NCBI GenBank assembly: GCA_045661185.1
Contig: JAZRFD010000017.1
Coordinates: 1 to 47,672, forward strand
Direction: 5' to 3'
DNA from: Eubacteriales bacterium
GTDB taxonomy: Bacteria; Bacillota; Clostridia; Oscillospirales; CAG-272
Length of the DNA: 47,672 nucleotides
Shown here: one piece after another, positions 3,285 to 15,732 of the stretch
Numbering within the stretch: position 1 is the first letter of the stretch
How the letters are laid out: each line of letters opens with the position of its first letter
Notes under the pieces: model-generated
What the model was told of the DNA's origin: nothing
Seen by the model: only the letters and a program-made list of their open reading frames with translations
Databases searched by the model: none
Program-made: the position numbers and the translations under genes

Positions 3285-4355
3285 TCAATCAATAATTCCA
3301 CCACCCACAACAACGTCACCGTCATAAAGAACAACGGATTGTCCTGAGGTAATGGCGCGTTGGGGCTCGTCGAAGCGGACGGTAAAGGTCGTGGGTGAGG
3401 TCTGCTCAACCACGGCGGGCGCGGGAGTCGCCTGATAGCGGATTTTTACCTGCACGCGCATGGGCGCATCAATGTGCTCAAGCGCGATCAGATTGACATC
3501 ATGCGCCGAGAGCTCCGAGCGGAACAGATCGGCGTTGGAGCCCAGCGTGACGGTGTTTTGACACACGTCCTTGGAGCAGACGTAGGTCGGAGCGCCAAGA
3601 GAGATGCCCAAGCCCTTTCTCTGCCCCACGGTATAACGGATCGCACCGTTGTGACGCCCGAGCACGCGCCCGTCGAGTGACACAAAATCCCCCGCAGGGA
3701 AGCGTTTGCCCGTGTAACGCTCGATAAACGCGGCGTAATCACCGTCGGGAACAAAGCAAATGTCCTGACTGTCATGCCGTCCCGCGTTGGAAAAGCCGTG
3801 TGCCGCCGCGATCTCACGCACCTCTGCCTTGGTAAAATCTCCAAGCGGAAAATGCGTGTGCGCAAGCTGCTCCTGTGAGAGCGACCAAAGCACGTAGGTC
3901 TGATCCTTGGAAAGGTCTTTTGCACGCAACAGCCGATACCGACCGTCCGTGCCTTTTTCAATGCGCGCGTAGTGCCCCGTGGCAATGCCGTAGCAGCCGC
4001 ACGCGCGGGCTTCGTCAAACAGAACGCCGAATTTCATCGTGCGGTTGCACTGCACGCAGGGGTTCGGCGTTGCGCCTTCCATATAGGTTTGAACAAAATA
4101 ATCAATCACGTTGCGTCGAAATTCTTCCGAGCAATCGCAAACGGAGAAGGGGATCCCGAGCTGCTCCGCTACACCGCGGGCAAGCGTGATCTCCTCGGGA
4201 TCGCAGCAGGAGCGTGTGGTGCTGAAGGTGACGTCGGAGAGAGAGAAGAGCCGCATCGTCGTGCCGATGCAATCATAGCCCGCTTCCTTTAGCAGGTACG
4301 CTGTCACCGTGCTGTCCACGCCGCCGCTCATGGCAACAAGAATTTTTTCGCTCAT
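3285..4355 (-). CDS. mnmA: tRNA-specific 2-thiouridylase MnmA
   Basis: 356 aa. PP-loop VAMSGGVDSTV at the N-terminus, NPCVQCN motif, overall MnmA-like layout. 4-nt overlap with the upstream trmL. Confidence 0.92.
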   Translation of the reverse strand: MSEKILVAMSGGVDSTVTAYLLKEAGYDCIGTTMRLFSLSDVTFSTTRSCCDPEEITLARGVAEQLGIPFSVCDCSEEFRRNVIDYFVQTYMEGATPNPCVQCNRTMKFGVLFDEARACGCYGIATGHYARIEKGTDGRYRLLRAKDLSKDQTYVLWSLSQEQLAHTHFPLGDFTKAEVREIAAAHGFSNAGRHDSQDICFVPDGDYAAFIERYTGKRFPAGDFVSLDGRVLGRHNGAIRYTVGQRKGLGISLGAPTYVCSKDVCQNTVTLGSNADLFRSELSAHDVNLIALEHIDAPMRVQVKIRYQATPAPAVVEQTSPTTFTVRFDEPQRAITSGQSVVLYDGDVVVGGGIID

Positions 4356-5044: not shown

Positions 5045-7813
<2,769 letters not shown>

Positions 7814-7817
7814 TACC

Positions 7818-8558
7818 ATGGGATTTGGCATCCTTTTGGTCGGGTATCTGATCACGTTTGTGATCTGGCTGACCGTGCAGGCGATCAACGTAGGCTCTCT
7901 GGCTCTGCTTTTGGGCTATAGCCTGATGTTCTACGCGCTTTCCATGCTGAATCGCTATCACGGTGCGTTTGCCTTTGCGCGGTGGATGGCGGCGATTCAG
8001 CTGATCCCCTCGCTTTGGTTCCTTGTAACCGATGCGTCAAAGCTGTTTGGCTTTACCTTGCCGCCGATTTGGGCGGATCACATCAACTCGGCATTCACGG
8101 GCGCGGCGTTCGCGCTTGAGATCCTGTTTTTGCTTTCCATGCTGTACGCGATCCGCGCATTGGCGGATTCGATCGGCCTTAAAAGCATTTCCATGTCGGT
8201 CGTGCGCAATATGATCTTCGTGATCGCGCATGCCGTGCTGTCGGTTGCAACCGATCTTCCGTTCCTTGCGGGCATCAAGCCCTACCTCACGGCATCCCGC
8301 TTTTTGGTGGAGCTGGTCACGATCGTGTCCGTCGCGCTCCTGCTTCTTGGCTGCGCCAAGAGCATCTGTCGGGAAGGGGATGAGGAGGTCGCGCACACAC
8401 CCTCGCGCTTTGGCTGGGTCAATCGCATGACCGACGCCTACGAGCGCACGCATAAGCGCCTGAACGATCAAGCAAGGGCGGACGGTGAGGCATTCATGCG
8501 CCGCCGCCGTGAAAAGCTGGAGCAAAAGAATCAAACGAAAAAACGAAAGAAAAAATAA
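7818..8558 (+). CDS. uncharacterised polytopic membrane protein with a poly-basic C-terminal tail
   Basis: ATG 7818 with AAGGAG at 7805-7810, overlapping the secA stop region. About 6 hydrophobic segments. Tail RRRREKLEQKNQTKKRKKK. No family recognised. Confidence 0.6.
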   Translation: MGFGILLVGYLITFVIWLTVQAINVGSLALLLGYSLMFYALSMLNRYHGAFAFARWMAAIQLIPSLWFLVTDASKLFGFTLPPIWADHINSAFTGAAFALEILFLLSMLYAIRALADSIGLKSISMSVVRNMIFVIAHAVLSVATDLPFLAGIKPYLTASRFLVELVTIVSVALLLLGCAKSICREGDEEVAHTPSRFGWVNRMTDAYERTHKRLNDQARADGEAFMRRRREKLEQKNQTKKRKKK

Positions 8559-8576
8559 AAGAACGGAGGTGGTGTG

Positions 8577-10124
8577 ATGCAATTCAAGGCAAAAAAGAAG
8601 CTTGGCCTGGGGCTTTTGCTCCCCGCAATGCTTTTTCTGGCAGAGCCGATCGTGGCGTTTACGGATCTTTTGCCCAACTGCATCGGTTACCTCTTGCTCT
8701 GTGCCGCCATTTTGCAGGTGGCAGACCTTTCCGACCGCATCAACGACGCCTATGAGCGCTTCAAAAAAATGCTATGGGTCAGCGTTGGATGCTTTCTCGC
8801 GCAGCTTTACATCAATCGCGTCCTTGTCGGTGGCAGTGAAGCGATGAACGCATACGAGCGTCCCGTTTTTCTGCTCATCTGCTCCTTCGGTCTGTTTTTG
8901 GCGCATTGTTATTTTCTCATTCCCGCATACAGAGATCTGTTTTTGGGGCTGAACGCGGTGGCGGAGCGCTTTGGCGGCAGCGCGGTGCTCCTGACCAATC
9001 GCCGAGGCAGAACTCACGGTGAGCGCATGGCGCACGCGGCGGGGCGGTTTGCCTTTTGGAACGCCTTGCTGGCTCTTTTGCCCGAGGTGTCGGTGCTGAC
9101 CACCTTCGAGTTCGCCGTTGAAAAGCTCCCCTTTGATTGGTATGAGTTTATAGGACTCTTCCGCACGCTGGCGGGGATGGCCTCGGGCGTGGTGTCCTTG
9201 CTCTTTTTCATTTGCATATTGCGATATACCCACCGATTGCTCGGGGACAAGCCCTTGATGGAAGGGCTTGAGGGGCGGTATACAAAAGAGGTTCTGCCAA
9301 ACACCTACGTGCTCGGCATGCGTCGCTATCGCTTTGCGTTCCTCTTTTTAATGGTCGGCGCGGCCTTTACCGTGCGCATCCGTATGGATGAGCGCGACCT
9401 TTTGCCCACCGTCATCGGTGCTGTGCTCATTGGCGTCGGGATCCTTTGGATGGGAGAGCGATTGCAGGGAATAAAGCCCTTGATAGGAGCCCTTTGTGCG
9501 TTGGCGATCATCAGCCTTTTGCAAAGATGGCGTACCGCGGCGTATCTGGAACTGTATCTGGACGCGCAGGCATCCCTGTATTCCAGCGAAGCCTTTCGCG
9601 CCTATCTCGGCGTTCGCATTTTGACGGCTTTGGAAATTTTATGCACGCTCGGTGTGTTTTTCCTCTTGCTCCGCTTTCTTTATGCGCTGGTGCGCGAGCG
9701 GCTGCACGTGATGTACGGTGGAGCCGACGCGCGAGAGATCTCCGCAAATGCCACGGCGCGATTGCACAAACGAATGCGGATCAAACTGTACGTATGCGCG
9801 GGAGTGTTTGGGCTTTCCGCGGCAGCAAGTCTTGCCGAGGTCATTTTGGGTGTTCTGTATCCATGGCTATGGTGGATCACGCTTGCCGTGTCACTTTCGG
9901 CCGTGATCGTGTTCCTCTCATTGCTTTTTGCGCTTTTGGATGAGCTTGACGACCGTTTATCAACAGAACGGTTGTATAAACAAGAGAAAACTGCACATAC
10001 TGACTCCGTAACCCCAAAAACAAAAAAGGAGTGCAGTAATCATGCAGAACAATCAGAACAACCAGAACAAGAATCAGCAGAACAACCAGAATCAGAACAA
10101 CCAGAATCAGAACAACCAGAATAA
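8577..10124 (+). CDS. uncharacterised polytopic membrane protein, apparent two-module internal duplication, acidic EQPES-repeat tail
   Basis: GGAGG at 8565-8569 favours ATG 8577 (the ORF-track GTG at 8574 is also possible). A DLLPxxIG motif occurs twice, 244 aa apart. The C-terminus AEQSEQPEQESAEQPESEQPESEQPE is encoded by the 15-nt repeat. Confidence 0.6.
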   Translation: MQFKAKKKLGLGLLLPAMLFLAEPIVAFTDLLPNCIGYLLLCAAILQVADLSDRINDAYERFKKMLWVSVGCFLAQLYINRVLVGGSEAMNAYERPVFLLICSFGLFLAHCYFLIPAYRDLFLGLNAVAERFGGSAVLLTNRRGRTHGERMAHAAGRFAFWNALLALLPEVSVLTTFEFAVEKLPFDWYEFIGLFRTLAGMASGVVSLLFFICILRYTHRLLGDKPLMEGLEGRYTKEVLPNTYVLGMRRYRFAFLFLMVGAAFTVRIRMDERDLLPTVIGAVLIGVGILWMGERLQGIKPLIGALCALAIISLLQRWRTAAYLELYLDAQASLYSSEAFRAYLGVRILTALEILCTLGVFFLLLRFLYALVRERLHVMYGGADAREISANATARLHKRMRIKLYVCAGVFGLSAAASLAEVILGVLYPWLWWITLAVSLSAVIVFLSLLFALLDELDDRLSTERLYKQEKTAHTDSVTPKTKKECSNHAEQSEQPEQESAEQPESEQPESEQPE

Positions 10125-10200
10125 GAACCAGCAGAACCAGAACAATCAGAACAAGAATCAGCAGAACAATCAGAATCAGAACAACCAGAACAATCGCTGA
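10042..10200 (+). CDS. candidate small ORF encoding a 52-aa Asn/Gln/Lys-only peptide (leader peptide or exported peptide?)
   Basis: ATG 10042 with AAGGAG at 10026-10031 (10-nt spacer). Translation MQNNQNNQNKNQQNNQNQNNQNQNNQNKNQQNQNNQNKNQQNNQNQNNQNNR, TGA at 10198-10200. Below the 60-aa cutoff of the ORF track. Caveat: a T-poor repeat is stop-poor in every forward frame. Confidence 0.35.
   Translation: MQNNQNNQNKNQQNNQNQNNQNQNNQNKNQQNQNNQNKNQQNNQNQNNQNNR
10045..10197 (+). repeat. T-poor degenerate CAGAAC/AAT repeat with three perfect tandem 15-mers
   Basis: CAGAACAACCAGAAT x3 at 10078-10122, embedded in 153 nt built almost only of CAG, AAC, AAT and AAG triplets (10 T in total). Confidence 0.9.
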
Positions 10201-10247
10201 TCGCGCCCTCCTGCGGGAGGGTACATAGCCTGAAAGGGGGCAACGGG

Positions 10248-12524
10248 ATGTTTGAAATCGACCGTATACCGCAAAGCGTCAAGCAAGCGCTCAAGGACCG
10301 AGACGTACCGATCGAGTCGGTTCGTCTTGCCGCGCATGCCGATCGCACGCAAGCCCAAGCTGTCGGTGACGTGTATCTGTTTGCGAGCGACAAAGAGCTC
10401 ATGCTTCTGCTTGGCACGTGGACGCAATCGGAATCCCTACATACACAATTTCAGGAAACCGGGTTTGAAAGTATCCCCATTTGTACGCTTCACGATTTTC
10501 ACGTCGAGGAACTGCTTTCGGCAGGCCGCCTTGTGGCGCGCCGCCGCGATGGGGAAAGCGATTCTCCGGTCCTTTTGGCATGCTTTACGAATTTCTGCAA
10601 GGAATCCATGTTCCTCTTTTCTAAATATGCGGAAAAGCTTTCAGGGGGCGAGGAGATAGAGATCGACCCCAAGGACGATCCGTTCGCCAAATGCTGTCCC
10701 AAATGCGGACTGCGCTATCCGGATCTGAACCGCAAGGTTTGTCCCCATTGCATGGAAAAAGGGAAGCTGTTCCGCCGCTTTTCCGTGTTTTTGGCGCGGT
10801 ACAAGGGCGCGCTGATCCTCTCGGTTCTCTCCCTTGTGCTCCTGACCGCCACCAGTATTCTGGCGCCCTATCTTTCCAGCGGCTTTTTCTATGATGAGGT
10901 CATCAGCGAATACGGTGCGTTTGCGGGAAATCTTGTACTGGTCATCTTTTTGGTCGTTGCCACGGGACTGTTAAAAATGTTTTCCACCATGGTCAACAAC
11001 TACGTTACCTCTGTGATTGCAGCAAAGGTCGTTTTTGACCTGAAAAAGACCATTTTTGCGGCGATCGAGCGCCTCTCGCTCAGCTTTTTTACGTGCAGAC
11101 AAACAGGGGGACTGATGACGCAGGTTAACGAGGACGCGAATACGATCTACACCTTTTTCTGCGATTCGCTTCCGTATCTGCTCATCAATATCGTGCAGGT
11201 TATCGTTTTGTCGGTCCTGCTCTTTACCATTCAACCCTTTTTGGCGCTTTTGTCGCTTGTTACCGTTCCGATCTTCCTGATCCTGATGCGCTATCTGATC
11301 CGTCGCTTGCGCATGTATCACGCGCGGCGTTATTCCAACTCACGTCGCATGAACGGATTCCTCGCGGACGTGTTCTCGGGTATGCGCGTGGTCAAGGCGT
11401 TTTCCAAGGAGAACGAGGAGATCAAGCGCTTTACGCAGCAAAACCGCTATTTGGCGGACAGCGAAAAAAAGCTTTCGCTTTATACAAACTATATGTGGCC
11501 CGTGGCGCATCAGCTCCTTTACGTTGGCAATATCGTAGCGTGGGGCGTGGGCGGCTATATGGTCATCAGCGGGCAGTTCAACCTGACCTACGGAATCCTT
11601 TTGACCTTTGTGACCTACATCAATATGATCTTTTCACCGCTTGAATATTTCGTGGTGTTCGTGGACCGCATGGCGGATTGCTCGAACGCGCTGCAGCGTT
11701 TGTTCGAGATCATGGACGCACAGCCCGAGGTGAGCGAAAAGGAATCTCCAGAGCGACCTGAGCAGCTTCTGGGTAGCGTAGAATTCGATCACGTGTCCTT
11801 CTCCTATCAAAAGGGGAAAAAGGTGATTGACGATGTCAGCTTTGACGTGCCGGACGGAGGGATCCTCGGCATTGTCGGGCACACGGGCGCGGGCAAGAGC
11901 ACGCTGGCAAACCTCATCATGCGCATGTATGATGCCGAGGTGGGCGAGATCCGTATCGGGGGATACCCCGTCAAGGACTTGGAGCTTGCAACGCTGTATC
12001 GCCACGTGGCGATCGTTTCGCAGGAAACCTATCTGTTTGTCGGCACGATCCTTGATAACATCCGCTACGCGCGCCCCGAGGCGAGCTTTGAGGAGGTCGT
12101 TGAGGCGGCCAAATGCGCGGGTGCACACGACTTTATTATGAAGCTTCCCGACGCGTATCATACGCGCATCGGCTTTGGATATAAGGATCTGTCGGGCGGA
12201 GAGCGCCAACGCGTCTCCATTGCACGCGCGATCCTCAAAAATCCTAAAATTCTGATCCTTGACGAAGCAACTGCCGCGATGGACACGGGCACGGAGCGCC
12301 GCATTCAGGAGGCGCTTGCGGAGCTTGTCAAGGGAAAGACCACCATTATGATCGCGCACCGCTTGTCTACTCTGCGCGACGCGGACGAGCTGGTCGTTAT
12401 TGAGCACGGCCGCGTTGTGGAGCGCGGCACACACCGCGCGCTGCTTGAGATCGAGGACGGTGTTTACAAAAAGCTGTATACCCTGCAGGAAGAAGCACTC
12501 AAGAGCGCAGGGATTGCCGAGTAA
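10248..12524 (+). CDS. ABC exporter half-transporter (TMD-NBD) with ~175-aa N-terminal extension containing a zinc ribbon
   Basis: 758 aa. AAGGGGG SD 7 nt upstream. CCPKCGLRYPDLNRKVCPHC at aa 149-168, just before TM1. Six-TM exporter domain. Walker A GHTGAGKSTL, signature LSGGERQR, Walker B ILILDEATAAMD. Confidence 0.9.
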   Translation: MFEIDRIPQSVKQALKDRDVPIESVRLAAHADRTQAQAVGDVYLFASDKELMLLLGTWTQSESLHTQFQETGFESIPICTLHDFHVEELLSAGRLVARRRDGESDSPVLLACFTNFCKESMFLFSKYAEKLSGGEEIEIDPKDDPFAKCCPKCGLRYPDLNRKVCPHCMEKGKLFRRFSVFLARYKGALILSVLSLVLLTATSILAPYLSSGFFYDEVISEYGAFAGNLVLVIFLVVATGLLKMFSTMVNNYVTSVIAAKVVFDLKKTIFAAIERLSLSFFTCRQTGGLMTQVNEDANTIYTFFCDSLPYLLINIVQVIVLSVLLFTIQPFLALLSLVTVPIFLILMRYLIRRLRMYHARRYSNSRRMNGFLADVFSGMRVVKAFSKENEEIKRFTQQNRYLADSEKKLSLYTNYMWPVAHQLLYVGNIVAWGVGGYMVISGQFNLTYGILLTFVTYINMIFSPLEYFVVFVDRMADCSNALQRLFEIMDAQPEVSEKESPERPEQLLGSVEFDHVSFSYQKGKKVIDDVSFDVPDGGILGIVGHTGAGKSTLANLIMRMYDAEVGEIRIGGYPVKDLELATLYRHVAIVSQETYLFVGTILDNIRYARPEASFEEVVEAAKCAGAHDFIMKLPDAYHTRIGFGYKDLSGGERQRVSIARAILKNPKILILDEATAAMDTGTERRIQEALAELVKGKTTIMIAHRLSTLRDADELVVIEHGRVVERGTHRALLEIEDGVYKKLYTLQEEALKSAGIAE

Positions 12525-12536
12525 GGAGGGGAGAGC

Positions 12537-13082
12537 ATGAGAGAGCACGGAAAAAACGCCCATGGGGGCGAGGAAAAAAAGGTGCGCACGCTGGCGGAGC
12601 TTTCGGTAACGGTATGGCTGACGCCCGAAAACGCGACCTTCTTTATGAAAAATCAGTTTCTCTATATCCGCTACGGTGAAGCCGAGGTGCGCGCGCAGCT
12701 CTACCGACAGTTCCCGTTTGAATCGGAATGGGAATTTATCTCGGTGATGAACGAGGAGCAGGAGGAGATCGGGATCATCCGCAACGTGTCGCAGTTTGAT
12801 GCGGAGACCGAGAATCTTTTGCGGGATGAATTGCGCCGCCGCTATTATGCGCCCGTGATCGAGCGCGTTATCAGCGTCAAGGAGCGCTACGGCTTTTCCT
12901 ACTGGAAGGTACATACTCCCGAGGGGGACGTCTCCTTTACGCTGCACGATACCTATCGCTCGATCATCCATGCGGGGCAGAACCGCCTGATCCTGCTTGA
13001 CGTTAACGGCAACCGCTTTGAGATCCCCGACGCCTTGGCGCTGGATCGCAAGAGCTACAAAAAGATCGAGCTGTATCTATAA
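12537..13082 (+). CDS. small soluble protein, DUF1854-like ABC-transporter-associated protein
   Basis: 181 aa, no hydrophobic segments, AAGGAGGGG SD. Sandwiched between two ABC half-transporter genes, as I recall for DUF1854 (PF08909) proteins. C-terminal NRFEIPDALALDRKSYKKIELYL. The family assignment is from memory and needs an HMM check. Confidence 0.55.
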   Translation: MREHGKNAHGGEEKKVRTLAELSVTVWLTPENATFFMKNQFLYIRYGEAEVRAQLYRQFPFESEWEFISVMNEEQEEIGIIRNVSQFDAETENLLRDELRRRYYAPVIERVISVKERYGFSYWKVHTPEGDVSFTLHDTYRSIIHAGQNRLILLDVNGNRFEIPDALALDRKSYKKIELYL

Positions 13083-13093
13083 GGAGGCGGCGT

Positions 13094-15310
13094 GTGAACG
13101 GATTTCAAAAAAAGCTTTTTGAAAAAGCGAAAACGCTGGATCCCGCATTGAGCGAGGAGGATTTCGTCGATCTGCTTTTGTCAGACCTTGACCCGCTCCA
13201 ACCGCAGGCGCGCGTGCAGGATTTCACGCTCCTGACGCGAGACGGGCTTTGCGTGTACCGTGACGGGGAGCGGATTTTGTTCGAGCCGATTGACGGGATC
13301 GAGCGATTGAACGTGATCAACGGTGTCGGGTGTGTGTTCGTGGAGCTGGTGCGCCGCGACGGCGAGCACGTGCGAATGGCACGCGCGGACAACCGACGAC
13401 AGTCAAGCGTTGCGCAATCGGTCAAGCGAATGAATCATTATCTGCGGCATGGCAGTACGGATTTTTCAAAGATAAAATTTAGCGGCGGGCAATGCCCACG
13501 GTGTGGCAAGCCCTATCCGCGCGGCTCACACACCTGCCCGCGGTGTACCTCCAAGAAAAAGGCACTGCGGCGTCTTTTGGGGCTTGCCATGCGCGAAAAA
13601 TGGCGCATTGCGGCATCTGTGGTTTTCTTCTTTGTGGGGACGCTTGTCAGCCTTGTGACCCCGATCATCAATCGCGTCATGGTGGACGATTACATCCAAA
13701 ACACGGGGGACCGTGCTCTGACGCGGGTTTTCTTTATCGGCTTTGTCAGCGTGGTGCTTTCCATGCTGGTGGCGAATATTCTCAAGCGCCTGATCAATAT
13801 GGGGCGCGGCTATTTTCTGGCGATCGCGGGCAACAACCTGATCGTGCGTCTGCGCGACACGGTCTTTGCCAAGATCCAGCAGCTTTCCATTTCCAGCATT
13901 TCCGAACGAACCTCGGGAGAGCTTATGAAGCGCGTCAACAGTGACACGCGTGTGATCAAGCAATTCCTGATCGACCACCTGCCAAGCCTTGTGGAGCAGA
14001 TGCTCTTGCTTTTGGCGGTCGGTGCTTACGTGTTTGTGGTGGATTGGCGCGTAGCACTCCTGATCCTAATCCCCGCACCCTTCGTAGCTCTTGCCTTCCG
14101 CATGTTCTGGCGCTTTATGCGCGGGCTCTTTCAACGCCGTTGGCAGATCAACTCCGAGACAAACGCCGTTTTGCACGACATCTTCTCGGGCATCCGTGTG
14201 GTCAAATCCTACGGCATGGAAAAGCGAGAGGAGAAGCGCTTCGTCGGCATGGCGGCGGCAGAGCGTGCGGCACAGCTGCGGATTGAGCGCTTTTGGGCGA
14301 TCCTGATGCCGCTTTTACGCTTCCTGATGGGCATCGGTGAATATATCCTGCTCTTTTACGTGGGCACGCAAATGCTCAAGGGGCAGATGACTGCGGGTGA
14401 AATGGCGCAGTTTTCCGCTTACGCGGGGATGATCTTCGGCCCGATGTCGGCGCTGATGAACTTCCCGCGGCAGTTTATGCACATGATGACCTCTCTCACG
14501 CGCGTTTATGAGATTATGGACGAGGAGATCGACATTGCAGACGGAGCTTCCAAGGAAGCCAAGCCCTTTGAGGGCTATATTGACCTTAACAACGTTTCCT
14601 TCGGCTACGATGACGCGCGCGAGGTGCTTCGCGGAATCGACCTGCATATTCGCCCGGGCGAGTTTATTGGATTGGTCGGTAAATCGGGCGTTGGAAAATC
14701 CACGCTGATCAACCTGATTATGCGTATGTACGACGTGGACGAGGGCTCGATCTGTATTGACGGTGAGGATATCCGCAACATTCCGCAGGAGGAGCTGCGA
14801 TCGCAGATGGGCGTGGTGTTGCAGGAAAATTTCCTTTTCACGGGCTCGGTCTGGCAGAATTTGACCTATGCAAAGCCAAACGCCACGCGCGAGGAGGTCA
14901 TTCAAGCCGCCAAAACTGCGGGCGCGCATGAGTTTATCATCCGCCTGCCCGACGGCTACAACACCTACGTTGGCGAAAAGGGGCATACGCTTTCGGGCGG
15001 TGAGCGCCAGCGCATCTCGATCGCGCGCGCGCTGCTGCACGACCCTAAAATCTTGATTTTGGACGAGGCGACGGCATCCTTGGATACCGAAACCGAAAAG
15101 CTGATTCAGGATGCGCTGGCGGCGTTGTCGGCAGGTCGCACGACCATTGCGATCGCGCATCGACTGTCCACGCTCCGCAACGCAACGCGACTTGTGGTCT
15201 TGGATAAGGGCGAAATTGCTGAGGTCGGCACGCACGACGAGCTGATGGAGCGCGAGGGCATCTATTACGGCCTTGTCATGGCTCAGCGTGAAATGTCGAG
15301 GATTGGGTAA
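13094..15310 (+). CDS. ABC exporter half-transporter (TMD-NBD) with ~165-aa N-terminal extension containing a zinc ribbon
   Basis: 738 aa. GTG start 6 nt after AAGGAGG. CPRCGKPYPRGSHTCPRC at aa 134-151. Walker A GKSGVGKSTL, LSGGERQR, ILILDEATASLD. Confidence 0.9.
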   Translation: MNGFQKKLFEKAKTLDPALSEEDFVDLLLSDLDPLQPQARVQDFTLLTRDGLCVYRDGERILFEPIDGIERLNVINGVGCVFVELVRRDGEHVRMARADNRRQSSVAQSVKRMNHYLRHGSTDFSKIKFSGGQCPRCGKPYPRGSHTCPRCTSKKKALRRLLGLAMREKWRIAASVVFFFVGTLVSLVTPIINRVMVDDYIQNTGDRALTRVFFIGFVSVVLSMLVANILKRLINMGRGYFLAIAGNNLIVRLRDTVFAKIQQLSISSISERTSGELMKRVNSDTRVIKQFLIDHLPSLVEQMLLLLAVGAYVFVVDWRVALLILIPAPFVALAFRMFWRFMRGLFQRRWQINSETNAVLHDIFSGIRVVKSYGMEKREEKRFVGMAAAERAAQLRIERFWAILMPLLRFLMGIGEYILLFYVGTQMLKGQMTAGEMAQFSAYAGMIFGPMSALMNFPRQFMHMMTSLTRVYEIMDEEIDIADGASKEAKPFEGYIDLNNVSFGYDDAREVLRGIDLHIRPGEFIGLVGKSGVGKSTLINLIMRMYDVDEGSICIDGEDIRNIPQEELRSQMGVVLQENFLFTGSVWQNLTYAKPNATREEVIQAAKTAGAHEFIIRLPDGYNTYVGEKGHTLSGGERQRISIARALLHDPKILILDEATASLDTETEKLIQDALAALSAGRTTIAIAHRLSTLRNATRLVVLDKGEIAEVGTHDELMEREGIYYGLVMAQREMSRIG

Positions 15311-15316
15311 AGAACG

Positions 15317-15732
15317 TGGGGAGGAGGGAACCTTCTTGAGGAGAAGGTTCCCTCCTCCCCACACCCCTCCACCCTCCAAGACCTTTGCAAAAGGGCACGC
15401 CCCGAGCGTTTGTGTCTTAACAACACAAACGCTCGGGGCGTGTGCGCTTCTGCGAAGCGCATTTCGGGTTAGGGGTATTTTTTTATCAACGGTAAACCAA
15501 CCTTGTGGAGCACTTGGGATGTGGGGCCCAAGTGCTATCGGGAGTATCTTTCCGTCGGTGTACTAAACTTTCCGACACAGTAAGCGCTGCACTGTACGAG
15601 CGAACTTTCACCACGCACTAACAAAAGAGGGCGCACCATGTTGTGCGCCCTTGCTTGGGAATGCTATAACCCGTTTGGTGAAAGTTCTTGAAAGGGGTGT
15701 GGGGAAAACTTCTTTCAAGAAGTTTTCCCCAC
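15317..15732 (+). repeat. full copy (A) of the hairpin-rich composite intergenic repeat (MITE/REP-like or structured RNA)
   Basis: 19-bp terminal hairpin 15317-15361. 20-bp perfect hairpin 15396-15442. GCGCTTC-TGC-GAAGCGC hairpin 15443-15461. GCACTTGGG hairpin 15509-15536. Long-range pair GAACTTTCACC (15602-15612) / GGTGAAAGTTC (15677-15687) enclosing hairpin 15628-15651. 14-bp terminal hairpin 15699-15732. 12-nt inverted termini CCCCACACCCCT (15357-15368) / AGGGGTGTGGGG (15693-15704). Confidence 0.7.

Follow-up and report, generated by a model that had tools for sequence, protein, structure and literature searches.

The forward strand of contig JAZRFD010000017.1 from an Eubacteriales bacterium (GenBank assembly GCA_045661185.1), whose whole 47.7-kb stretch was analysed here and is called the window, carries a series of tightly spaced genes: secA (5045-7813), the genes of two polytopic membrane proteins, TM1 (7818-8558) and TM2 (8574-10124), a short open reading frame (ORF) that is made up almost entirely of asparagine and glutamine codons (QN, for Asn/Gln), and then the ATP-binding cassette (ABC) gene ABC1 (10248-12524), a gene for a DUF1854 protein (12537-13082) and ABC2 (13094-15310). 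The QN frame and the signals surrounding it are the subject of this study, and its core features are listed below.

10042..10200, + strand: probable QN gene, encoding the 52-aa peptide MQNNQNNQNKNQQNNQNQNNQNQNNQNKNQQNQNNQNKNQQNNQNQNNQNNR with 28 Asn, 19 Gln, 3 Lys and 1 Arg (Met1, Arg52); 6.3 kDa, pI 11.3
10026..10031, + strand: Shine-Dalgarno (SD) sequence AAGGAG, separated by a 10-nt spacer from the ATG at 10042; AAAGGAGT is invariant in a 14-lineage alignment
10078..10122, + strand: three perfect 15-nt units CAGAACAACCAGAAT, starting at 10078, 10093 and 10108, inside the QN gene

The QN frame closes at the TGA codon at 10198-10200, uses CAG for every Gln codon, and consists of Asn and Gln codons to 90%. 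Tandem Repeats Finder (TRF) reports overlapping arrays with periods from 6 to 39 in the tract, whose base counts are 83 A, 39 C, 25 G and 12 T. Chance suffices to explain an open QN frame in the window and the third forward frame is open as well; since T is confined to the third position of the QN codons, base composition keeps two of the three forward frames open. The original prediction, which had been made from the sequence of the window without database searches, warned that T-poor DNA weakens the coding argument, and the window alone indeed cannot settle the coding status. All coordinates and counts that it gave (SD, ATG, TGA, peptide make-up, 15-nt repeats, the TAA of the upstream frame, the downstream hairpin and the ABC start) were correct on rechecking.

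Conservation of the QN frame and its relation to TM2

QN genes were collected by TM2 homology searches plus DNA-pattern scans (the loci compared are given as L-numbers), and 62 distinct peptides of 19-68 aa with 62-92% Asn plus Gln were obtained from metagenome-assembled genomes (MAGs) of Eubacteriales, Oscillospiraceae and Clostridia. TM2 homologues with 62-77% identity to that of the window share a "...KKECSNHAEQ..." tail, and their loci (L001-L010) represent five distinct lineages. All five keep the AAGGAG sequence and the ATG, their QN frames comprise 40-66 codons and close with CG(C/T)TGA 5-7 nt upstream of a CCCTC(C)-N4-GGAGGG-TACAT hairpin, and the ORF is present in the gene-caller output for L005, L006, L007 and L008. 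A profile built from 21 TM2 homologues retrieved 30 loci from species-level genomes, each of which is a MAG of Eubacteriales, Oscillospiraceae or Clostridia; in nearly every locus TM2 is followed by a QN-rich ORF, down to 26% TM2 identity.

Across these 30 lineages the QN frame is open in every case (with 80-96% Asn plus Gln in nearly all), the frame in which TM2 enters the same tract (the acidic frame) contains 1-6 stops in 27, and most of the lineages have an open third frame as well. GGAG is found 6-10 nt upstream of the ATG in 27 of the 30, and the SD and ATG columns are invariant in the 14-lineage alignment. For Gln, the GC-rich clade of the window uses CAG and other lineages use mainly CAA; the Asn codons are AAC or AAT. 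Among 217 alignable pairs, which are non-independent and whose low-complexity alignments are approximate, differences at QN codon positions 1, 2 and 3 numbered 736, 400 and 2353, the ratio of synonymous to non-synonymous changes was 1413:1266 in the QN frame versus 350:2589 and 184:2800 in the other two frames, and 1163 of 1417 indels had lengths in multiples of three. A second clade has a conserved QN C-terminus, NNQYEQKKNER.

These comparisons strongly support the original proposal that the QN frame is meaningful rather than the acidic one and that it begins with a genuine SD and ATG: start signals and frame are conserved in orthologous loci, and substitutions are more often synonymous in the QN frame than in the acidic frame. 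Positions 10042-10200 very probably represent a real small protein-coding gene, and, as judged from sequence, the QN genes encode a hitherto unannotated family of basic peptides, almost purely Asn and Gln, in uncultured gut Clostridia. An exact look-up of 10 QN peptides in a collection of 15 billion proteins found none of them, Pfam and NCBIfam gave no match for the window peptide, and a Pfam search with 10 diverse members gave none at E<=1. DNA-pattern scans, including one with a stricter pattern, turned up no QN gene in a cultured isolate, and limited literature searches found no published description of the family.

In the window, the QN gene partially overlaps the end of TM2 in the following way.

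9987..10124 (start approximate), + strand: clade-specific 3' extension of the TM2 gene (8574-10124), spanning the putative QN promoter, the leader and the first 27 QN codons in another frame

Here the membrane-protein frame reads ...EQPESEQPESEQPE and ends at the TAA at 10122-10124. TM2 ends about 60 nt upstream of the SD in other lineages (L012, L013, L021 and others), in which non-coding leader aligns with the "AHTDSVTPKTKKECSNH" codons of the window. Within the window clade the acidic frame ends at a different TAA in each lineage (L007 has two stops) and the length of the tail varies from 14 to 57 aa; TM2 residues 473-515, in the tail, have a predicted local distance difference test (pLDDT) score below 50 in the AlphaFold2 (AF2) model, i.e., they are modelled as disordered. 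Judging from these alignments, TM2 lost its ancestral stop codon in the window clade, and the acidic tail is thus a by-product of read-through. The original description of an acidic tail was right, and it missed both that the tail is such a by-product and that promoter-like boxes lie inside the membrane-protein coding sequence. We also considered whether the shared frame of TM2 and ABC1 (with a single TAA between them) is meaningful, and rejected this as coincidence, because in other lineages the two frames are not the same or more than one stop intervenes.

Promoter-like element, leader and 3' hairpin

The following features were located around the QN gene.

9974..9978, + strand: -35-like box GTATA (G[ACT]ATA), inside the extended TM2 coding sequence; its G and ATAA columns are invariant in the 14-lineage alignment
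9996..10001, + strand: -10-like box CATACT, 17 nt 3' of the -35 box and 40 nt 5' of the ATG
9991..10007, + strand: segment over the -10 box that pairs with the SD-to-ATG region (10028-10047) in the minimum free energy (MFE) fold; relevant to transcripts begun further upstream
10206..10221, + strand: 3' hairpin CCCUCC-UGCG-GGAGGG, starting 5 nt past the stop; -11.8 kcal/mol
10222..10227, + strand: UACAUA, immediately after the hairpin; TACAT is invariant in the alignment of QN-ABC junctions

Upstream of the QN gene, the order G-ATAA, 17-18 nt of variable spacer, CATA(A/C)T, GTA and then AAAGGAGT is conserved. Of 56 distinct QN ORFs, 50 have the pattern G[ACT]ATA-N17-18-[ACT]A[AT]A[AC]T in the 250 nt upstream, in most cases at a distance of 35-60 nt from the ATG, compared with a background of 24 matches in 945 kb (0.006 per 250 nt), and scanning both strands of the 47.7-kb window found it once, at 9974-10001. 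The boxes are also present at stand-alone QN genes with unrelated flanks (GTATA-17-CATACTA in L102, GTATA-18-CATAATA in L056, and L144). Where the -35 box overlaps TM2, it covers (Y/H/N)K codons whose first base is T, C or A, exactly what the box permits. Mapped sigmaF/sigmaG promoters of C. difficile have a -35 box G-x-ATA, a spacing of 17-18 nt and a -10 box (C/A)A(T/A)A(A/C)T (text and Table S6 of PMC3789822), and GTATA-N17-CATACT of the window agrees with this C. difficile consensus in both boxes and in spacing; sigmaE promoters have the same -35 box and spacing and a different -10 box, CATA[TAC]A.T (Table S7 of PMC3789822). When 43 QN promoters were scored with -10 matrices derived by expectation-maximization (EM) from the C. 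difficile promoter tables, the forespore position weight matrix (PWM) scored higher than the sigmaE PWM in 35 and higher than the sigmaK PWM in 30, with mean scores of 6.0, 3.2 and 4.1 bits, respectively. The element at 9974-10001 is predicted to be a sporulation-type promoter, most like those recognised by the forespore factors sigmaF and sigmaG.

The duplex between the -10 region and the initiation region has a predicted energy of -15.1 kcal/mol in the window versus a shuffle mean of -6.4 (z = -3.9), and such duplexes were better than shuffles (p<=0.05) in 20 of 43 lineages. They use differing sequences and registers (-15 kcal/mol in the window clade; -17 kcal/mol in the second clade, L014-L026, where GGCAUAAUGAGUA pairs with UGCUCAUUAUGC; also L033, L059 and L115), and occluding pairing was found in none of the 6 stand-alone QN genes tested. 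It is possible that this pairing could silence the QN gene in read-through transcripts. Between the -10 box and the SD, L012, L013, L021, L059, L070 and other loci carry a short palindrome or hairpin (e.g., GTAATTCCAAATTAC), of which the window clade has a degenerate version, GTAACCCCAAAAAC. In most lineages it coincides with the 5' end that is predicted for the QN transcript, and stand-alone genes carry other hairpins there; this palindrome could be a 5' stabiliser or an operator. In L015 (5392-5594), and equivalently in L022, an insertion of about 150 nt parts the promoter, the palindrome and the original SD from the QN start, which is preceded by a new SD, GGAGA; the insert common to these two loci could be a small mobile or structured element.

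Beyond the stop codon, 35 of the 53 distinct QN genes examined carry a GC hairpin of 5-8 bp followed by TACAT within 0-5 nt, against a background probability of 0.048; in 31 of those 35 the sequence is TACATA. The stems vary with pairing kept (CCCUCC/GGAGGG, UCUCCCC/GGGGAGA, CCCCC/GGGGG, CCCUCUC/GAGAGGG, CCCCGC/GCGGGG and others). As the hairpin-TACAT element is also present at QN genes without the ABC operon (L052, L102, L063 and L069), it belongs to the QN gene. These counts come from per-sequence folds anchored on TACAT; analysis of the QN-ABC junction with MAFFT and RNAalifold, in which second-clade hairpins were mis-registered and 3 pairs were returned, was set aside in favour of the anchored folds. 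UACAUA is the strict cleavage site reported for MazF of B. subtilis, Listeria and S. aureus (bioRxiv 10.64898/2026.08.06.743204). A MazF-type cut after the hairpin could leave a hairpin-protected 3' end, a suggestion drawn from the conserved position of the hexamer; TACATA is not rare in the window, with 5 occurrences on the + strand versus 2-7 expected.

Genomic contexts and the neighbouring ABC operon

Among the 62 QN genes, about 49 follow TM2; about 28 are then followed by ABC1-DUF1854-ABC2, more than 15 lie by TM2 without ABC genes, and about 10 occur in other contexts, so that more than 25 of the 62 have no adjoining ABC gene. Unrelated contexts include those of L052, L056, L102, L070, L053, L063, L069, L144 and L163. 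QN genes without ABC genes downstream usually end at a canonical intrinsic terminator (L014, L024, L033, L036, L038, L056 and L144). Between the hairpin and ABC1, sigmaA-type boxes were observed in L027 (TTGACA-18-TATGAT, ~5660-5700) and L031 (TTGACT-17-TACAAT with an extended TG, ~5640-5690), and L017 may hold a similar sequence as judged by eye. Thus, on the evidence of its distribution and signals, the QN gene is independent of the ABC operon.

10248..15310, + strand: ABC1-DUF1854-ABC2 operon, assigned by Pfam, NCBIfam and synteny; genomic context, not demonstrably part of the QN unit

ABC1 and ABC2 are ABC_membrane plus ABC_tran half-transporter fusions with N-terminal cytoplasmic extensions of ~170 aa that contain CxxC...CxxC zinc-ribbon motifs (Pfam Zn_Ribbon_1 gave a weak match, in ABC2 only), and no peptidase (C39-type) domain was found on either by Pfam. 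The best NCBIfam models for ABC1, ABC2 and the DUF1854 protein are those of the cyanophycin metabolism-associated ABC/DUF1854 module (NF052233 / NF052234), the cut-offs of which were not reached (484 and 552 bits versus 880 for the ABC proteins, and 79 versus 150 for the DUF1854 protein), and no cyanophycin synthetase gene lies nearby. DUF1854 has been proposed to be part of an amino-acid-polymer exporter (bioRxiv 10.1101/072470).

The order secA-TM1-TM2 (window 5045-10124) recurs in many MAGs of Eubacteriales and Oscillospiraceae (L001-L040), even where identity has dropped to about 25%. TM1 has ~240 aa and the TM2 core ~465 aa; neither matched a Pfam or NCBIfam family or, in a PDB profile search, a solved structure, and the AF2 model of TM2 (pLDDT 72.7) gave no Foldseek match (best E = 0.13, TM-score below 0.2).

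Several observations were made on the neighbourhoods. In L052, L056 and L102 the QN gene lies between a pflA-like gene (judged by N-terminal sequence) and a convergent gene of 698-713 aa, which is glutamine synthetase III by Pfam in L052 and probably so in L056 and L102, where the N-terminus is near-identical; the location of such an enzyme beside a Gln/Asn-only peptide deserves mention and may be mere synteny. In L034, L038, L084, L088, L112 and L115, a large ORF (813-866 aa where translated) with a conserved N-terminus (...ERYIKAKRxLF / ...ERFLKLKR) comes next after QN in place of the ABC genes; its identification as prfB was rejected, as neither its length nor its Walker-A-like GAGSGKT motif fits. 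A palindrome with a 20-bp stem at 15316-15362 of the window, between ABC2 and a convergent ABC/FtsX gene, probably acts as a terminator in both directions. On the - strand, upstream of secA, the window contains a gene for an MnmA-type tRNA 2-thiouridylase (3285-4355) with a SpoU methylase gene downstream of it, an arrangement conserved in L002, L004 and L007. MnmA modifies U34 of Gln, Lys and Glu tRNAs, and its proximity to a Gln-rich ORF is probably coincidental.

A possible sporulation gene, its alternatives and known systems

The interpretation that we favour, and to which we give about an even chance on the basis of the sequence features above, is that the QN unit is a sporulation-specific gene for an Asn/Gln micro-protein resembling the small acid-soluble proteins of spores (SASPs), with its own promoter and 3' module. 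Under such a scheme, a transcript from the sporulation promoter would begin ~33 nt upstream of the ATG and the strong SD would drive translation of the QN peptide, and the GC hairpin with UACAUA would mark or stabilise the 3' end, lineages without the hairpin using a canonical terminator instead. The product may be an abundant, disordered, acid-soluble spore protein that, by analogy with gamma-type SASPs, might serve as a reserve of amino acids and amide nitrogen or as a protective filler. In long transcripts of the secA operon, the RNA over the -10 box would pair with the SD-ATG region, which may keep the gene silent outside sporulation, and a transcript from the sporulation promoter would lack the occluding strand. 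We infer the sigma-factor assignment, spore localisation, storage function, occlusion of the ribosome-binding site (RBS) and MazF processing. The most elaborate version, in which a spore-packed amide-nitrogen reserve or glass-forming protectant is confined by a forespore promoter, RBS occlusion and a MazF-cut hairpin-UACAUA module, is a speculative one that is rather unlikely to hold as a whole. Two contexts recall sporulation: the QN gene of L070 adjoins dpaA and dpaB, and the contig of L168 carries, in addition to a QN gene, a Coat_F gene that has the same promoter motif ahead of it, GCATA-N18-GCATAAT. Expression of SASP genes depends on sigmaG, and all clostridia lack gamma-type SASPs (SspE) (PMC3533761).

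Several points weigh against this interpretation. The sigma assignment draws on motif similarity, the -35 box and spacing are common to sigmaE promoters, and for the CATACT type found in the window the margin is small (forespore 4.5 versus 3.4 bits for sigmaE and 4.2 for sigmaK). No recognisable sporulation gene is present in the 47 kb of the window, and every QN carrier is a MAG. The peptides tested match no SASP family profile, a motif like the cleavage site of GPR (E[FIYL][AG][ST]E) is present in 0 of 62, and tblastn with a B. subtilis SspA sequence had no match in any locus. Known ssp genes are scattered in genomes, and most QN genes have kept their place behind secA-TM1-TM2 even in deeply diverged lineages, a hint of a link with these membrane proteins. 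Moreover, a nearly pure Gln/Asn peptide is prone to aggregation and deamidation, which would be odd for a storage protein.

The fixed locus is an argument for the alternative that the QN peptide is a partner or regulator of TM1 and TM2, perhaps of SecA, whatever the timing of its expression: about 49 of 62 QN genes directly follow secA-TM1-TM2, to 25% TM2 identity, and two membrane proteins without known family or fold might have a dedicated small partner. However, stable synteny is on its own no proof of function, about 10 QN genes lie elsewhere with the same promoter boxes, the QN gene has a promoter-like element of its own and lacks tight coupling to TM2, and the Ruminococcus-type TM2 loci L037 and L039 lack a QN ORF. 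We regard this alternative as improbable. A comparably small chance is given to the possibility that the peptide is cargo of the ABC1-DUF1854-ABC2 exporter, by analogy with the proposed export of cyanophycin-like polymers. The best-matching NCBIfam models and the location of QN immediately before the exporter genes in about 28 lineages, with a hairpin that lacks a U-tract and makes read-through plausible, are in its favour. Nevertheless, adjacency is limited to these ~28 of 62 genes, the NCBIfam scores stay under the cut-offs, a GG-type leader is absent from 61 of 62 peptides (one contains GG) and the ABC proteins have no peptidase domain, and sigmaA-type promoter-like sequences part the two units in L027, L031 and possibly L017. 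The original suggestion of an exporter cargo is weakened by synteny, and the neighbouring exporter does best match a polymer-export module, below its cut-offs.

The same hairpin and operon had suggested in the original prediction a translated leader, or sensor, in which the decoding speed of Asn and Gln codons gates expression of the ABC operon. The ORF is enriched in two codon families and ends 5 nt before a hairpin with an anti-SD-like 5' arm and no U-tract, with the ABC start 47 nt further on; yet the ORF and its promoter boxes persist without the ABC operon and at the ends of transcription units, with a terminator of their own, the hairpin is also found at stand-alone QN genes, and a range of 19 to 68 codons with clade-specific C-termini (NNQYEQKKNER) argues for a peptide product. 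Folding of the alignments returned the hairpin core alone, with no mutually exclusive structures, i.e., no conserved terminator/antiterminator alternative, and no conserved pairing of the hairpin 5' arm with the ABC SD of the kind that had been envisaged. The leader model is largely refuted by synteny, and we consider it quite improbable. Even less probable is a function at the RNA level, in which the A/C-rich, nearly unpairable tract would bind a protein through Hfq-type AAN/ARN motifs or load Rho, the ORF being secondary. In Rfam, segment 9850-10350 gave weak, compositional matches to CrcZ, a small RNA consisting of A-rich CA motifs (E = 0.078 and 14.8 bits versus a gathering score of 95), and nothing in the whole window reached the gathering threshold. 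Variation at third codon positions and the alternation of CAG with CAA preserve amino acids rather than bases, the SD, ATG and stop are conserved, and the equally A/C-rich Thr, His and Pro codons are avoided. A chance ORF in a stop-poor repeat, representing the low-complexity tail of the membrane protein, would be in keeping with T-poor DNA and with the open third frame in most lineages. This reading is hardly credible: the membrane protein ends before the tract in most lineages, the acidic frame is interrupted in 27 of 30, and the QN frame with its SD and ATG is kept in 62 distinct sequences, including loci that have no membrane-protein gene; cross-lineage conservation and the third-position substitution pattern refute it.

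If the sporulation reading is true, the QN family would fill an empty SASP niche as a missing spore component of uncultured Oscillospirales of the gut and rumen, major spore-mediated colonisers; gamma-type SASPs, and most of the minor ones, are not known from Clostridia. The family also points to an annotation blind spot, as in the window clade the tail of a longer gene covers the QN gene. In addition, a near-pure Gln/Asn bacterial peptide offers a handle on the tolerance or use of prion-like composition, and two candidate regulatory devices come to light, the promoter-embedded occlusion of the RBS and the module of hairpin and UACAUA.

Compared with known systems, the QN gene resembles leader peptides (bmrB-bmrCD, his/trp/thr) in being a short ORF rich in few codons, directly upstream of an ABC exporter and followed by a hairpin, and differs from them in that it is not tied to the downstream operon, has no alternative fold, has its own promoter-like element and terminator, and exceeds them in length, which varies, while the peptide ends are conserved. 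The cyanophycin-associated ABC/DUF1854 module is the closest relative of ABC1-DUF1854-ABC2 although the scores are below the cut-offs; unlike that module, the operon has no cyanophycin synthetase here, and the QN gene often occurs without it. Gln/Asn-rich prion-like domains, such as that of Clostridium botulinum Rho, share the extreme composition, whereas QN is a free-standing peptide of 19-68 aa with regularly spaced Lys/Arg and is not part of a larger protein. The minor SASPs of Bacillus (SspH to SspP, Tlp) are likewise polar peptides (34-70 aa), lineage-restricted and often missed by annotation, and have forespore promoters of the kind predicted for QN; they have no homology with QN peptides, and no minor SASP is known to be a near-homopolymer of two residues. 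QN peptides are not members of the gamma-type SASP family of Bacillales (SspE), as they lack sequence or profile similarity and a GPR-type site; they are also strongly basic, and most copies occupy one locus after secA-TM1-TM2. SspE has about 39% Asn plus Gln, compared with 62-92% in the QN family. Nevertheless, SspE and the QN peptides are alike in being small, very hydrophilic, repetitive and Gln/Asn-rich (the QN family having low-complexity sequences with internal repeats), with composition conserved over sequence and highly variable length, and in having a compact gene with a forespore-type promoter (predicted for QN), a strong RBS and a terminal hairpin.

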